Of a stretch of 64,000 nucleotides of DNA, positions 7,560 to 13,213 are shown piece after piece. Each line of letters opens with the position of its first letter. Within the stretch, counting starts at the first letter, position 1. The stretch is taken from contig NZ_SMCO01000002.1 of NCBI RefSeq assembly GCF_004346685.1, positions 120,940 to 184,939 on the forward strand, written 5' to 3'. The notes under the pieces are model-generated. The model searched no databases. It was not told where the DNA came from and worked only from the letters and a program-made list of their open reading frames with translations. A program made the position numbers and the translations under genes. The stretch comes from Sulfurirhabdus autotrophica. GTDB taxonomy: Bacteria > Pseudomonadota > Gammaproteobacteria > Burkholderiales > SMCO01.

Positions 7560-9917
7560 TCAACCTCTGGCACCACCGGAGTAAGTTATGGCCGATCCTT
7601 TCGAATCATTACCACTACTTCCGGTAATTCGGCTTACCGGTAACTCTGGACGCTCACGATCTTTCAACTGTGAAGCACCGATTACCGCACCACGCTGCTC
7701 ACCCCTCATTGTGGGGTTACGGCGCGTTGAATTTCCTTCCGTGCCAGTTACACTTTCATTACGTCGCCATGCTGCACCCGTTATCGCAAAACCGCCTTCA
7801 CGACCATCACCTGTCAGTCGGCTACGTGCTTCCTCAACCAACTGAACCTGAGCCATGACTACGGGTGCCGTACTTTCCTGATGGCGGAACTCAGGGGTAC
7901 CAGACACCAGACCCGTTGCCAGATTAACCGGGCCAGTGATACGTCCGATTGCACCGTAAGCAGTGCCTGTGATGTTGCTGATGCTACTATCCTGGGCACT
8001 GCGAGCCGGGGTAGCGATGCTAAAATTTCCTTGCACTCTTTGTTCCTGCGGTGCAGGTGCTGCTTCGCGCGGTACATTTACCGGACGCTGTGTGAGCGGG
8101 TGCGGATTACTGTTTGCACCACGCTGAGACACACGCTGATTGGACCCGGAATAAGGAGTGCCGCTCAAAACCTGGCTTTCGCCACGCCCTGCACCTGTTA
8201 CCTTCCCACCTGATTCAACCCGGGCACCACTCAGAGACAAACTTGCCTGAGCCCCACGACTAGCCATCAAAGCCCGTGAAGCGGCCTGACGATCTGCATC
8301 GCAAAAAGAGGTATATTGATCAGGCCCGATATACTCTGTTCCAGAAATCGGCTGACAACCACCATACTCATCGCCTGTTACCTTACTGCTATGCTCAACT
8401 GGTGTACCGGATACCTGCTGCTCATGCCAGGTGCGCATTACACCAATTTTTTCCGGTGCTGGTGCCGGTTCGCGATTGCAAGCCTGATATTGAGCAAGGC
8501 CATCAGATTCAGTACCGGTCACACTTGCACAAGCACCACGATCACCACCTGTAACCATGCTGCCAGGAGCAACGTCTGTTCCGCTGATTTCGCGATTTTT
8601 AACCGTGCTCATCAAACTAACCTTGTGCGGCGCGCTGCTGCCATTACGACATGCACTGGTGTTCTGGTCCTGAGCGTATTGACTACCGGTAAGCTTACAG
8701 TTGCAGCTACCAGACTCGTCACCCGTTACTTTTGAGCTGCGGCCCACTTCTGTACCGCTCACGTTTAAACCAGCTCGGGTATTGGCTATACCCACTTTTG
8801 ATGGTGTCAGCGCTGGTTTGGTGCCACAGAACGATTCAAACTTGTCAGCACTCAGATACTCAGTACCGGTTACGTTTTTGCATGCACCAAATTCGCTACC
8901 TGTCATCTTTTCGCTACGATCGGTATCAATACCGCTGATGCGCTGGCCTCGGCTGGTATTGCTGATACTTACCTTAGCTGGTGCAGCCTCAGGTGTCGCA
9001 TCACACAACTGCCCATATTGCTCAGCACCAATATATTCAGTACCGGTAATCGCACGACAGCTGCCAGATTCAACACCGGTCACCTTGCTGATGCGCTCAA
9101 CCTGAGTACCGCTCACTGTGGTACCACTCAAAGTAGTACCAATTTCAACTTTGACAGGTGAAACCTGGGTACGTACACGCCCCGTAGGTCGGCAAGCAGG
9201 ATCATTGCCACGACCGTTCTCGCACATTTCTGCGCGGCGTGCTCGTGCAGCATCCCGGCCACTTAAACCCGCAGTTGCCCTTTGGTTTAATTTTCCGGAT
9301 TTAACTGCTTTCTTTCCCTGACTGGATAGTGCGCGGCGGCGCTCCTGACATAATTTGCGTACGGCAGAGGCAACCGAACCAACAACAGCCGTAGGCTCAT
9401 CATCTACAATCGCACATACTTCCTCTATTGCCTGCTCACGCTCAGCCTCTTCCGCCCTGTCTTTGCTTTTGCAACCACACCCTGACTTTTGATCATCCGA
9501 TCCAGCATTCGCGGTTAAAGATGCGGATGCTGACATGGTTGTCGCAGGTGCAGATGTACGAATACTTGATGCCGTTTTAGCTGAACCCAGCGCCGCTTTC
9601 CCACCCAGTGACATGGCTTCACGTCTCGCTCTGGATAATGACTTGCCAGAAGCATTCATCACTGAACCTGAGGTGGCAGCAGATGTTGTTGCAGACAATG
9701 AAGCTGCTGGCGCTGTCTGTGCCGGACGTGCAGTCTCAACGGTTGAAGTTATCGGTGCTGCTGTTGACATTGCTGGCCTGGTTGCTGGACGTGCAGGTGC
9801 GGATGGTTTTGCACCAATCGCGGTGCGTCCGTTCTGGGACAGCGCACGGCGCCTTTCCAGTGCAACAGCGCGTGACGAACGCGGAGTCGTTGTATTGTTT
9901 GCCATTGGATCGCTCAT
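7560..9917 (-). CDS. csoS2: Carboxysome scaffold protein CsoS2.
   Basis: 785 aa, intrinsically repetitive. N-terminal RRRALS-type repeats are followed by many VSGT/ISGT...KVTG(D/V)E(S/Y)G(S/G)C repeats with paired cysteines. A GGAGGA ribosome-binding site precedes the ATG. Confidence 0.85.
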   Translation of the reverse strand: MSDPMANNTTTPRSSRAVALERRRALSQNGRTAIGAKPSAPARPATRPAMSTAAPITSTVETARPAQTAPAASLSATTSAATSGSVMNASGKSLSRARREAMSLGGKAALGSAKTASSIRTSAPATTMSASASLTANAGSDDQKSGCGCKSKDRAEEAEREQAIEEVCAIVDDEPTAVVGSVASAVRKLCQERRRALSSQGKKAVKSGKLNQRATAGLSGRDAARARRAEMCENGRGNDPACRPTGRVRTQVSPVKVEIGTTLSGTTVSGTQVERISKVTGVESGSCRAITGTEYIGAEQYGQLCDATPEAAPAKVSISNTSRGQRISGIDTDRSEKMTGSEFGACKNVTGTEYLSADKFESFCGTKPALTPSKVGIANTRAGLNVSGTEVGRSSKVTGDESGSCNCKLTGSQYAQDQNTSACRNGSSAPHKVSLMSTVKNREISGTDVAPGSMVTGGDRGACASVTGTESDGLAQYQACNREPAPAPEKIGVMRTWHEQQVSGTPVEHSSKVTGDEYGGCQPISGTEYIGPDQYTSFCDADRQAASRALMASRGAQASLSLSGARVESGGKVTGAGRGESQVLSGTPYSGSNQRVSQRGANSNPHPLTQRPVNVPREAAPAPQEQRVQGNFSIATPARSAQDSSISNITGTAYGAIGRITGPVNLATGLVSGTPEFRHQESTAPVVMAQVQLVEEARSRLTGDGREGGFAITGAAWRRNESVTGTEGNSTRRNPTMRGEQRGAVIGASQLKDRERPELPVSRITGSSGNDSKGSAITYSGGARG

Positions 9918-10109: not shown

Positions 10110-10442
10110 TTACTTTCCACGGAACACAACAAATGATGTGCCCTGGCTTTGCGAGTAATTGTCATATCCGATCAATCGCACATGGTTACCAGGGTGCGCA
10201 CGGTGACAGGCTTCCAGCTCGGCTATAATCACATCAACTGACTGCTCGCCGAACATTGGCAACTTCCACATATACCAGTAGTAAGCACTAGCCCGTGCAG
10301 GTTCAACGTGCTCTATCCCCGGATTCCATCCCTGACTTACCAGATAAGCAATCTGACGACGGATTTTTTCCGGGGTCATTGGAGGCAAATACGAAAATGT
10401 TTCGTATTTAGGTGTGGATTTGAAATCTTGAATATCAGCCAT
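10110..10442 (-). CDS. cbbS: Rubisco small subunit.
   Basis: 110 aa ([48 protein letters not shown]...), immediately downstream of cbbL. Confidence 0.95.
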
Positions 10443-10531: not shown

Positions 10532-11953
10532 TTAGCGGTTAACCACGTCCAGCTTGTCCACGGTATCGAACTCGAACTTGATCTCTTTCCATGTTTCCAT
10601 AGCGATCTTCAATTCCGGGCTATCCTTGGCTGCATTGGTAAGAATCTCTTTACCTTCACGTTCCAGTTCACGACCTTCGTTACGCGCTTCAACACATGCT
10701 TCCAGCGCAACACGGTTAGCAGCCGCACCTGCAGCGTTACCCCATGGGTGACCTAAAGTACCGCCACCGAATTGCAACACTGAATCATCACCAAAGATGT
10801 TTACCAGTGCCGGCATGTGCCATACGTGAATACCACCAGAAGCGACCGGGAATACACCTGGCATGGAACCCCAATCCTGGTCAAACATAATGCCGCGTGA
10901 ACGGTCTTCAGGAATAAATGACTCGCGCATCAAATCAATCCAGCCCAGCGTTGCTTCACGGTCACCTTCCAATTTACCAACAACGGTACCTGAGTGCAGG
11001 TGATCACCACCGGACAGACGCAGAATCTTGGTCAAGACGCGGAAGTGAATACCGTGGTGCGGGTTACGATCCAGCACGGCATGCATAGCGCGGTGAATGT
11101 GCAACAACATACCGTTCTTGCGACACCAGTTCGCCAGACTGGTATTAGCGGTAAAGCCACCCGTAATGTAATCGTGCATGATAATTGGAGCGCCGATTTC
11201 CTTGGCAAATTCAGCACGTTCAATCATGTCTTCATAAGTTGGCGCCGTTACGTTCAGGTAGTGACCTTTACGCTCGCCAGTTTCTGCCTGAGCAGTCAAC
11301 GTTGCATCCTGCACGAACAGGAAGCGATCACGCCAGCGCATGAATGGCTGACTGTTGATGTTCTCGTCGTCCTTGGTGAAATCCAGACCACCACGCAAAC
11401 ATTCGTATACAGCACGACCGTAGTTTTTAGCAGACAAACCGAGTTTTGGCTTGATGGTACAACCCAACATCGGACGGCCATACTTGTTCATCTTGTCGCG
11501 TTCAACCTGAATACCGTGAGGAGGACCACCGCAGGTCTTCACGTAGTGCAGAGGGAAGCGCACGTCTTCAAGACGCAATGCACGAATTGCTTTAAATCCA
11601 AACACGTTACCCACCAGAGAGGTAAACACGTTAACCACAGAACCTTCTTCAAAAAGGTCGATCGGATAAGCAACAAAGGCATAGAAGCAAGTATCATCGC
11701 CTGGCACGTCTTCAATGCGATAAGCGCGTCCTTTGTAGTAATCCATGTCTGTCAAAAGATCGGTCCAAACTGTGGTCCAGGTACCGGTTGAAGACTCGGC
11801 AGCAACTGCAGCAGCAGCTTCTTCACGGTCTACGCCAGCTTGCGGGGTGATCTTAAAGCAGGCCAGGATGTCCGAATCCAATGGTGCGTACTCTGGCATC
11901 CAGTAGGTCTGTCGATATTCCTTAACACCTGCCTCATACTTTTTTGCGGCCAT
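10532..11953 (-). CDS. cbbL: Rubisco large subunit, form IA.
   Basis: 473 aa with the hallmark [24 protein letters not shown] motif, the active-site lysine region and a C-terminal WKEIKFEF tail. Confidence 0.97.
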
Positions 11954-11986
11954 GTTTGCTCTCCTAAGTGCTATAGTTGAAAAATT

Positions 11987-12209
11987 CTGTTGGAACCGTC
12001 ATTAAGGTTCCGACGGTTGAGCCCATTCTGGAAGAGATGGTTATTTAATAAAAGTTAAATATATTTACTATTACGTTTTACTTTTATTTATTAACTTCAT
12101 CCTTCCACAATCCAACCCTGTACCAACTGTTGGAACCGTCATCTAGTTCCGACGGTTGAGCTTATTGTGAGAGCTCACATTAATTAATAAAAGTTAAATA
12201 TATTTACCG
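11987..12209. promoter_or_regulatory. Two copies (11987-12069 and 12127-12209, period 140 bp) of an approximately 83-bp element in the cbbR-cbbL divergent promoter region. Each copy carries the dyad AACCGTC-N11-GACGGTT (LysR T-N11-A type).
   Basis: Seen directly. Both copies share ctgttggaaccgtcat...gttccgacggttgag...ttaataaaagttaaatatatttac. Copy 2 also contains the perfect inverted repeat TGTGAG-AG-CTCACA. Confidence 0.7.
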
Positions 12210-12238
12210 TAATCATTTATTTTAATTTAATATAAGTT

Positions 12239-13213
12239 ATGCCTATACACCACGCAACGCTGCACCAACTGAAGATTTTCGATGCTGTCGCCAGGCACAT
12301 GAGCTTTGCTCGTGCCGCAGAAGAACTGCACCTGACACCACCAGCACTATCGATTCAGGTCAAGCAATTGGCGGAGGCTATCGGGCAACCACTGTTCGAA
12401 CAGATTGGCAAAAAAATATCGCTCACCGCCGCGGGTCAAGTTTCATGGTCTACCTGCCGGGATGTACTGAGTCGTCTGGATCAACTTGCCCAGGAATTGG
12501 CCTCTCTTCAGGGTCTGGAGAAGGGCAACCTGAAACTGGCTACTCTTGCTACCGCCAAATACTTTATCCCACGGTTGTTAGGGGAGTTCTGTATAAAACA
12601 CCCCGGTGTTGACACTGCCTTGTTTATGGGCAATCGTGAAGCACTACTGGAAAGGCTCGCGCGCAATCAGGACGACCTCTACATTCTGGGCCAACCTCCG
12701 GAACATATGAATGTTATTACGGAACCTTTTGCTGATAATTTTCTGGTCGTAGTTGCCGCCCCAAACCACCCATTAGCGAATGAAAAAAAAATTGATCCAT
12801 CTCGTTTACGAGAAGAGCCATTTATCCTTCGGGAACCAGGATCAGGCACACGCCTTTCTACCGAAAAGTTTTTTGAGCAACATGGCGTGACACTTAAAGT
12901 GCGCATGGAATTAGGAAGCAACGAAGCGGTGAAACAAGTAGCTGCAGGTGGTTTGGGCATAGCGGTACTATCTTCAAGCGCTTTACGCTCCGAGCTTGCA
13001 AATGAGGAGCTTGTGATACTGGACGTCAAGGGTTTCCCGCTGGAACGCAAATGGTATGTGGTTTACCCGATGGGAAAACATCTGACCCCTGCCTCCAGGG
13101 AATTCATGGCATATCTATTTGCTGCTCCACCCACACACCAACTTGACCATAACCAGCTTCATGCAATTTCTGCCAAGCCTGAACACAAGAAAAAACGGCC
13201 GACACCCAAGTGA
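12239..13213 (+). CDS. cbbR: LysR-type transcriptional regulator CbbR.
   Basis: N-terminal LysR helix-turn-helix (LHQLKIFDAVARHMSFARAAEELHLTPPALSIQVKQLAE). Divergent from cbbL. Confidence 0.85.
   Translation: MPIHHATLHQLKIFDAVARHMSFARAAEELHLTPPALSIQVKQLAEAIGQPLFEQIGKKISLTAAGQVSWSTCRDVLSRLDQLAQELASLQGLEKGNLKLATLATAKYFIPRLLGEFCIKHPGVDTALFMGNREALLERLARNQDDLYILGQPPEHMNVITEPFADNFLVVVAAPNHPLANEKKIDPSRLREEPFILREPGSGTRLSTEKFFEQHGVTLKVRMELGSNEAVKQVAAGGLGIAVLSSSALRSELANEELVILDVKGFPLERKWYVVYPMGKHLTPASREFMAYLFAAPPTHQLDHNQLHAISAKPEHKKKRPTPK

Follow-up and report, generated by a model that had tools for sequence, protein, structure and literature searches.

Control of RuBisCO and carboxysome operons by CbbR is a textbook LysR system, in which the target operon is activated, and the regulator gene autoregulated, through one compact operator. 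The locus considered here lies in a 64-kb stretch of the Sulfurirhabdus autotrophica genome (64,000 nucleotides of contig NZ_SMCO01000002.1; hereafter the window, in whose positions coordinates are given). It is the 285-bp gap between cbbL, on the - strand, and a divergent LysR-family gene, cbbR, on the + strand, and it contains a head-to-tail tandem duplication of the complete cbbL/cbbR divergent control region, about 140 bp long. Each copy carries a GC-rich inverted repeat (the dyad) and an AT-rich tail of 24 nt (the AT box).

Two described systems lie closest. In the classical divergent promoter of a LysR-type transcriptional regulator, TNA-N7-TNA (T-N11-A) boxes form an activation site near -35 and a recognition site near -65 (summarized in Esparza et al. 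2010, PMC2942843); Xanthobacter flavus and Cupriavidus necator have cbb operators of this type. With the cbbL start where it is predicted, the window would resemble this arrangement: the three TTA-N7-TTA boxes of unit 1 would have their centers near -33, -43 and -66, and the boxes overlap the regulator's own promoter, which permits autoregulation. It differs in that the whole operator and both core promoters are doubled, with the target and regulator promoters, as predicted, each having its own operator. The second system is the cbbR-cbbL1 (rbcR-rbcL1) region of Acidithiobacillus ferrooxidans, where binding of CbbR/RbcR is credited to Kusano & Sugawara 1993. That work is reviewed, with sequence, in the same paper (Esparza et al. 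2010, PMC2942843), which gives the region of strain Fe1 divergent sigma-70 promoters and two TNA-N7-TNA CbbR sites that overlap these promoters, and reports nucleotides verified as CbbR-protected.

The A. ferrooxidans sequence is like the window in the order of its elements: a -10 of CACAAT; 13-14 nt; TT[AT]ATAAAAGT[TA]AAATATATTTAC; then TATGATTTA...ATG of cbbR, with 80% column identity. Acidithiobacillus also shares an orthologous regulator (P0064 and P0074, 76-78% identity, with residues 21-40 identical at three loci), a cbbL-cbbS-csoS2 operon downstream, and, in the loci examined, a hairpin-capable dyad after the -10. It differs in having one unit, in an intergenic region of about 146 nt, where the window has two tandem units with a relic of the cbbR 5' end between them; in A. 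ferrivorans the stem sequence of the dyad is different as well. The parts, then, are of known kinds: this is a LysR/CbbR divergent region with a published Acidithiobacillus homologue. Two features appear not to have been described before: a tandem duplication, conserved among relatives, of the module as a whole, and a conserved hairpin at the predicted cbbL start (+1). The literature searched yielded no earlier description of a duplicated cbb operator and none of a conserved +1 hairpin of the alpha-carboxysome lineage; on mapped Acidithiobacillus cbbL starts, RbcR footprinting or cso-operon promoters it gave nothing usable.

The structure of the duplication is as follows.

11990-12129, + strand: repeat unit 1, cbbL-proximal, 140 bp, by local alignment against 12130-12271
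12130-12271, + strand: repeat unit 2, cbbR-proximal, 142 bp, running on into the live cbbR gene
11987-12002 and 12127-12142: repeat block 1, 16/16 nt
12007-12093 and 12146-12232: repeat block 2, 87 nt, 76% identity
12106-12129 and 12248-12271: repeat block 3, 24 nt, 79% identity
12097-12129, + strand: decayed remnant of the first 11 cbbR codons (ATG plus 10), 26/35 identity to 12238-12271, ending at the CTG junction

A direct-repeat search finds the three blocks collinear, at a spacing of 139-142 bp, and local alignment merges them into strictly tandem copies, 11990-12129 and 12130-12271, that abut head to tail at a defined junction. A first-pass annotation had described an element of about 83 bp occurring twice, 140 bp apart; the repeat is real and in the place given for it, and the spacing holds, but the unit is about 140 bp, not 83. 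Its right end is the cbbR start codon plus 10 further codons; that is, the first 11 codons of the regulator gene were copied. The junction reads CAACTG/TTGGAACC (the slash marks the join). The trinucleotide CTG occurs both in the cbbL leader (TTCTG/TTGG) and at cbbR codon 11, the signature of a tandem duplication mediated by 3-nt microhomology. Identity between the copies is patchy: the dyad arms and AT box match at 53/53 positions, the remainder at 60/94 (Fisher p = 2e-8, for blocks that were picked after their cross-species conservation had been seen).

The age of the event can be judged from relatives. Loci with cbbR were gathered from genomes and metagenomes, and fall into three classes. 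The first, with two units and cbbL divergent from cbbR, comprises six loci: the window; a metagenome-assembled genome (MAG) of Sulfurirhabdus, L001; the Gallionellaceae L007, L012 and L013; and a Nitrosomonadales MAG, L010. The second class has exactly one unit: A. sulfuriphilus (L036/L037), A. ferrivorans, an Acidithiobacillus sp. (L055), L039 and L051. In A. sulfuriphilus and L039 the two genes are separated by 146 nt, and the single unit runs in the order Shine-Dalgarno, UCAACUAU element, dyad, ATTGTG, 13-14 nt, AT box, TTTTACTATGGTTTA, cbbR ATG. The third class comprises many loci in which cbbR has no adjoining cbbL; the AT box and cbbR promoter segment are kept, without the dyad. A metagenome scan with CbbR yielded only two further close loci, neither with an adjacent cbbL.

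A decayed cbbR relic ends at the identical CTG junction in all six two-unit loci, and these form one clade in a neighbor-joining tree of CbbR (no bootstrap), with the single-unit loci outside it. Because six genomes from several genera carry the identical junction, the duplication is, by this comparison, old and inherited, not a strain-specific slip; by the same comparison a single unit is the ancestral state. The first-pass annotation had called for just such a comparison, naming a strain-specific slip as the outcome that would undo its reading, and had supposed a doubled operator unit to be an unusual layout. The slip does not materialize, and the layout is indeed unusual, as relatives outside the clade carry the unit once. 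The duplication is common to related sulfur- and iron-oxidizing bacteria.

Other loci show comparable structures. Ferrovum (L040/L041, 1118-1500) has two AT boxes 233 bp apart; a weak but collinear alignment relates the GC-rich insert that separates them to about 120 nt of the cbbR coding sequence (score 36, against 23 +/- 4 for shuffles, with 3 of 300 shuffles equally high). Ferrovum CbbR clusters with that of Acidithiobacillus in the neighbor-joining tree. The Ferrovum duplication probably arose separately, through another junction some 120 nt into cbbR. A decayed relic of the cbbR 5' end is also present at L042 (1100-1200), in a module close to DabB of an Acidiferrobacteraceae MAG.

Which part of the unit does CbbR recognize? 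The candidates in the AT-rich half are these.

12045-12068: copy 1 AT box, putative CbbR operator (activation-site region), with TTA-N7-TTA boxes at 12045 and 12055
12078-12090: copy 1 third TTA-N7-TTA box (TTACTTTTATTTA), candidate recognition site, kept among copy 1 units
12184-12207: copy 2 AT box, putative CbbR operator, running into the predicted cbbR -35, with TTA-N7-TTA boxes at 12184 and 12194
12217-12229: copy 2 third TTA-N7-TTA box

The AT-rich tail, and not the GC-rich dyad, is the putative CbbR operator. Its 24-nt sequence, TTAATAAAAGTTAAATATATTTAC, occurs exactly twice in the 64 kb (at 12045 and 12184), with no third copy in the window and none expected by chance (100 shuffles). 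The AT box with its flank fits the T-N11-A/TNA-N7-TNA pattern, with three TTA-N7-TTA boxes per unit; the third box of copy 1 falls inside what is left of a cbbR promoter (TTTACT-N17-TTTATT). When the CbbR-site logo sequence of A. ferrooxidans (PMC2942843, Additional file 3) is reverse-complemented and compared with both window units, mean column identity is 80%. It runs from the cbbR side across the AT-rich region and ends 5 nt past the -10; the alignment takes in ATTGTG, the AT box and the TATGATTTA segment that follows. The similarity to an experimentally characterized CbbR binding region is therefore at the level of the region, not of individual protected nucleotides. The first-pass annotation had noted the conservation of the tail, and the 24-mer is identical in both copies; it had treated the tail as a mere appendage of the dyad, and that view gives way, as it is the tail that matches the characterized operator region.

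The regulator and the relatives point the same way. Residues 21-40 of CbbR, assumed to span most of the helix-turn-helix, are identical in 9/9 CbbRs compared, three of them from Acidithiobacillus, so the same DNA specificity is expected. Nearly every relative has an AT box upstream of cbbR, even where cbbL does not adjoin. None of the six duplicated genomes has lost either AT box, and each box differs from the window 24-mer at 0-3 positions; both operators would therefore be in use, with occupancy of each by CbbR presumed. The module CAxAAT, 13-14 nt, AT box also precedes other carbon-concentrating genes in relatives, an Sbt-type transporter gene among them, and as judged from sequence outlines a putative CbbR regulon of such genes. 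At L008 (5060-5150; 1685-1730) and L042 (1100-1200), the module stands upstream of a class II fructose-bisphosphate aldolase gene adjoining DabA, a DUF6671 gene and a DabB-like gene.

The AT-rich half of unit 1 has a further symmetry: a 20-nt inverted repeat (12040-12059/12076-12095, 85% complementary) joins its first and third CbbR boxes. Were a hypothetical distal promoter to give a long leader, this repeat would make an AU-rich hairpin of extended length there; for the 218-nt leader the folding z-score is -4.1.

The first-pass annotation had placed CbbR elsewhere, on the dyads, as LysR sites of the T-N11-A class in two dyad-based modules.

11990-12022: copy 1 dyad, about 33 nt, arms TTGGAACCGTCAT and GTTCCGACGGTTGAGC
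11994-12000 and 12012-12018: copy 1 helix A, AACCGTC/GACGGTT, N11
11992-11997 and 12005-12010: copy 1 helix B, GGAACC/GGTTCC
12130-12161: copy 2 dyad, AACCGTC at 12134-12140 and GACGGTT at 12151-12157, N10, arms as in copy 1, loop 1 nt shorter

The inverted repeat is present in both copies, as claimed, and is clear, with identical arms in a LysR-regulated divergent region; the N11 spacing is that of copy 1 only, copy 2 having N10. With up to 3 mismatches allowed, the 64-kb window holds no further copy of the dyad. As a CbbR site, though, it fails on several counts. The symmetric T (11999) and A (12013) are 13 nt apart, in a span of 24-25 bp, so T-N11-A does not fit; arm spacing varies from N11 to N10 to N9 between copies and species; the stem sequence is different in A. 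ferrivorans (L033) and wholly replaced in L051, while CbbR residues 21-40 stay the same across the nine proteins; and other modules with CbbR boxes lack a dyad. The dyad also lies downstream of the invariant -10, starting about 7 nt after it, at the predicted cbbL +1, and the A. ferrooxidans logo sequence (PMC2942843) stops 5 nt past the -10. Recognition of the dyad by CbbR is thus very improbable.

What the aligned leaders conserve at the dyad is pairing rather than sequence, so the cbbL mRNA most likely begins with a stem-loop there. RNAalifold, applied to 13 cbbL-sense leaders, finds helix B (GGAACC/GGUUCC) as the consensus, with compensatory changes at 4/6 pairs. Extended to 10 pairs, the helix is paired in 81% of cells and has double changes at 7/10 pairs, a result matched by none of 500 shuffles; slid registers of the same helix all score far worse. 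Helix A (AACCGUC/GACGGUU) is 85-87% paired, with little covariation. L051 has at the dyad position an unrelated 10-bp stem (GGCUGUGAUC/GAUCGUAGCC) with the same 8-nt loop. Every leader folded has a hairpin at that position (mean z-score -2.3 in the sense and -2.6 in the antisense direction). The hairpin possibly acts on mRNA stability or translation.

The 5'-terminal stem-loop of the Escherichia coli ompA leader is reported (Emory, Bouvet & Belasco 1992) to protect its mRNA from decay that depends on the 5' end. The cbbL leader is like ompA-type leaders in having a stable hairpin at, or a few nucleotides from, the predicted +1, kept by pairing and not by sequence; it is unlike them in having two alternative helices, no Rfam family and a 5' end that is only predicted. 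The Rfam scan covered both strands of 11800-12400 and gave chance hits only, far below gathering scores, with no curated family. Readings of the dyad as a sigma-54, LexA or NtrC-like site were rejected by eye.

Copy 2 of the dyad bears on how far the second unit is still in service. Its arms are identical to those of copy 1 at 29/29 positions; the loop between them and the neighboring spacer have diverged. Since the loop differs, gene conversion is unlikely as the cause; identical arms about a differing loop argue for selection. The copy 2 dyad is kept in the sister species L001 (N9) and decayed in L007, L012, L010 and L013.

The predicted promoters frame both dyad and operator.

12025-12030, - strand: predicted -10 of cbbL promoter P1 (CAGAAT); C, A, A, A, T invariant in 15/15 leaders
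11954-12018, - strand: predicted cbbL mRNA leader, about 65 nt, with the hairpin, a conserved UCAACUAUAGCAC element and an AGGAGAG Shine-Dalgarno
12164-12169, - strand: -10-like hexamer of a possible distal cbbL promoter P2 (CACAAT), in the same place in unit 2 as the P1 -10 in unit 1
12203-12231, + strand: predicted cbbR promoter, with -35 TTTACC (12203-12208), 17-nt spacer and -10 TTTAAT (12226-12231), read from the sequence

The hexamer CA[CG]AAT is the putative cbbL -10: five of its six positions are invariant in the 15 aligned leaders, the next seven bases are variable, and its distance to the AT box is 13-14 nt in every unit. The cbbL start was predicted at 7 nt after this hexamer, which puts it at about 12018 for unit 1, at the head of a leader alignable across 13 genomes. 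Measured from there, the unit 1 boxes would fit the classical LysR layout of activation site and recognition site. Another hexamer, TATAGC near the Shine-Dalgarno, was rejected as the -10 because it would put the 5' end of the transcript within the ribosome-binding site. Between the hairpin and the Shine-Dalgarno (11966-11985, - strand; alignment columns 51-66), the element UCAACUAU(A/G)(G/C)CAC is found in all cbbL leaders from Acidithiobacillus to Sulfurirhabdus. No terminator-like site (GC-rich stem plus T run) is present on either strand of 11900-12300.

For cbbR, the promoter geometry is kept in relatives, and the CbbR boxes of unit 2 overlap the promoter as expected for autoregulation. 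The -10 ends 7 nt before the ATG (12239), with no Shine-Dalgarno; by this spacing cbbR looks leaderless, with its start at or beside the A of the ATG. The gap from TTTA[AC]T to ATG measures 6-8 nt, again without a Shine-Dalgarno, in almost every related locus; L038 and L051 are the exceptions, with an insertion and a longer leader.

The region holds two complete CbbR-type modules, and so two candidate cbbL promoters, in keeping with the first-pass suggestion of two transcription start regions for cbbL. In Sulfurirhabdus, where the -10 and the dyad of unit 2 are both intact, there is probably a second, distal CbbR-dependent cbbL start, near 12157. The intact copy 2 arms about a changed loop, in two Sulfurirhabdus species, suggest that this promoter is still active.

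A rival account would make the repeat a neutral 140-bp slip of no regulatory consequence: unit 1 kept the cbbL promoter, operator and leader; unit 2 kept the cbbR promoter and operator; P2 and the copy 2 dyad of Sulfurirhabdus are inert leftovers. It accommodates the decay of the copy 2 dyad in L007, L012, L010 and L013, and of the copy 1 cbbR relic everywhere, and the local promoter alone explains the conservation of each AT box. The two AT boxes lie 137-166 bp apart (233 bp in Ferrovum) and keep no constant helical phase, which makes a fixed two-tetramer complex on the two operators unlikely. Against a neutral slip stand the 29/29 identity of the copy 2 arms beside a diverged loop and spacer, seen likewise in L001, and the module duplications that seem to have arisen more than once (Ferrovum, L042), a repetition that hints at selective advantage. 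Neutrality is fairly unlikely.

The explanation that accounts best for the locus as a whole, and that is judged probable to a modest degree, joins three proposals: an ancestral unit duplicated through CTG, CbbR acting on the AT boxes, and a dyad that is a leader hairpin. That is, a compact divergent region, ordered as cbbL hairpin, cbbL -10 CA[CG]AAT, 13-14 nt, AT-rich operator with three TTA-N7-TTA boxes, overlapping cbbR promoter and cbbR ATG, would have duplicated head to tail by 3-nt microhomology between the cbbL leader and cbbR codon 11; CbbR would bind the AT-rich box in each module and not the GC dyad; unit 1 would drive CbbR-dependent transcription of cbbL-cbbS-cso; unit 2 would provide cbbR expression and autoregulation, its boxes overlapping the cbbR -35 and -10; and activation and autoregulation, which depend on a common operator where there is a single unit, would each have come to have an operator of their own. 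The dyad at the predicted +1 would be the 5' stem-loop of the cbbL transcript and not a site for a regulator. The predicted cbbL and cbbR starts are about 220 bp apart in the window, compared with about 81 bp within one unit. Decay of the cbbR-side dyad in the four genomes outside Sulfurirhabdus fits a division of labor of this kind (subfunctionalization).

Several observations weigh on the other side. Matches to TNA-N7-TNA are cheap in AT-rich DNA. All promoter positions are predictions, and a strict consensus promoter scan recovered neither the cbbL nor the cbbR promoter; such a miss is usual with activator-dependent promoters but lends the positions no independent support. Its one - strand match inside copy 2 (TTAAAA-17-TATATT) is no better than in shuffles and carries no weight. 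The copy 2 dyad is lost in 4/6 duplicated genomes, which leaves a distal promoter with its leader hairpin as a lineage-specific feature at most. As for the hairpin, helices A and B are mutually exclusive and yet both largely conserved; in the window it is the + strand hairpin that is more stable (-18 kcal/mol, z = -3.9, versus -10.5 kcal/mol); the sense leader taken as a whole shows no unusual stability (z = -1.06); the covariation was drawn from 13-15 related sequences, which are not independent; and the ratio of G.U to A.C pairs, which at 9 to 2 favors a cbbL-sense RNA in the 6-bp core, is 9 to 9 over the full 10-bp helix.

The last of these points would suit a different reading, in which the dyad is a DNA operator for another dimeric regulator, for example a repressor at about +1 to +33 of the cbbL promoter, doubled along with the CbbR operator. 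A symmetric palindrome of similar stability on both strands, a balance of strand-specific pairs over the full helix, arms strongly constrained in both Sulfurirhabdus copies, and an overlap with the predicted start, a common position for repressors, are all in its favor. But pairing is kept through compensatory changes and complete replacement (L033, L051) while loop length and sequence vary; the window has no other copy of the dyad; and no match was recognized among the regulator consensus sequences considered, those of CRP/FNR, LexA, NtrC and sigma-54. An operator of this sort is unlikely, if still to be reckoned with, and the leader stem-loop remains the preferred reading of the dyad.

A bolder extension of the joint explanation can be offered tentatively, as a possibility with the odds against it. 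It holds that duplication has split the operator more than once (in the Sulfurirhabdus-Gallionellaceae clade, in Ferrovum and at the Acidiferrobacteraceae DabB locus) as regulatory subfunctionalization, with two tandem CbbR-dependent cbbL promoters in Sulfurirhabdus, and that the +1 dyad with its two exclusive helices is an undescribed cis-acting RNA element of alpha-carboxysome leaders in Acidithiobacillia and Betaproteobacteria. If true, subfunctionalization here means separate CbbR operators for activation of the carboxysome operon and for autoregulation of cbbR.

None of this overturns current understanding, and a specialist would not be greatly surprised. What the locus offers is a natural test of the cost of coupling: single-unit relatives (Acidithiobacillus, L039) can be set beside two-unit ones (Sulfurirhabdus, Gallionellaceae), and the comparison could show whether uncoupling alters the response of carboxysome expression to CO2. 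For annotation, the likely CbbR box of these chemolithoautotrophs is the AT-rich 24-mer; the promoter module of CAxAAT, 13-14 nt and AT box marks other carbon-concentrating genes; and attention is drawn to the conserved hairpin with which the cbbL leader would begin.

The genes on either side are these.

10532-11953, - strand: cbbL, form I RuBisCO large subunit (NCBIfam NF003252, E = 4.8e-243)
10110-10442: cbbS, downstream of cbbL
7560-9917: csoS2 (CsoS2), downstream of cbbL and cbbS
12239-13213, + strand: cbbR, LysR-family regulator (best NCBIfam match CbbR NF045990, E = 1.4e-74, under the equivalog cut-off)

The order cbbL-cbbS-csoS2, with cbbL first, marks an alpha-carboxysome operon, and cbbR, on the + strand facing cbbL on the - strand, is placed as a cognate LysR regulator should be, divergent from and adjoining its target. 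The window CbbR is 100% identical to an S. autotrophica protein and 76-78% identical to the Acidithiobacillus LysR-family proteins P0064 and P0074. With these identities and the NCBIfam matches, the names cbbL and cbbR given in the first pass are right.

Copy 2 has one further symmetrical feature.

12166-12179: TGTGAGAGCTCACA palindrome, in the spacer between the unit 2 -10 and AT box

This perfect palindrome (TGTGAG-AG-CTCACA), also pointed out in the first pass, is present as described. The sister species L001 has TGTGGAAGAGAACA at its position, so the palindrome is species-specific, and it is probably fortuitous. The half-sites of CRP/FNR-type sites are separated by N6; a site of that type was rejected, the spacing here being N4 and the palindrome absent from the sister species.

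A few minor observations concern the related loci. In the Acidithiobacillus sp. (L055/L057, 1330-1500), only about the first 9 codons of cbbL remain, with unrelated sequence in place of the rest; the full control unit and cbbR are still present. In A. ferrivorans (L033, 2001-2067), the database gene call for P0074, 327 aa, begins inside the operator; its annotated N-terminus is probably over-extended, the conserved ATG (MSIRHATLHQLK...) lying 66 nt downstream. Short tandem repeats occur upstream of a cbbR that does not adjoin cbbL, where TTGCCGCCAATA is present three times (L004, 2826-2861; L047, 1326-1361), and in L054 (1060-1135), where the cbbR -10 segment (CTACTATAATTTAATATAAAT) is likewise present three times. 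Elsewhere in L054 (935-1040), a cbbL-type leader, with hairpin, conserved element and Shine-Dalgarno, is joined not to cbbL but to an Sbt_1 (PF05982) transporter gene.

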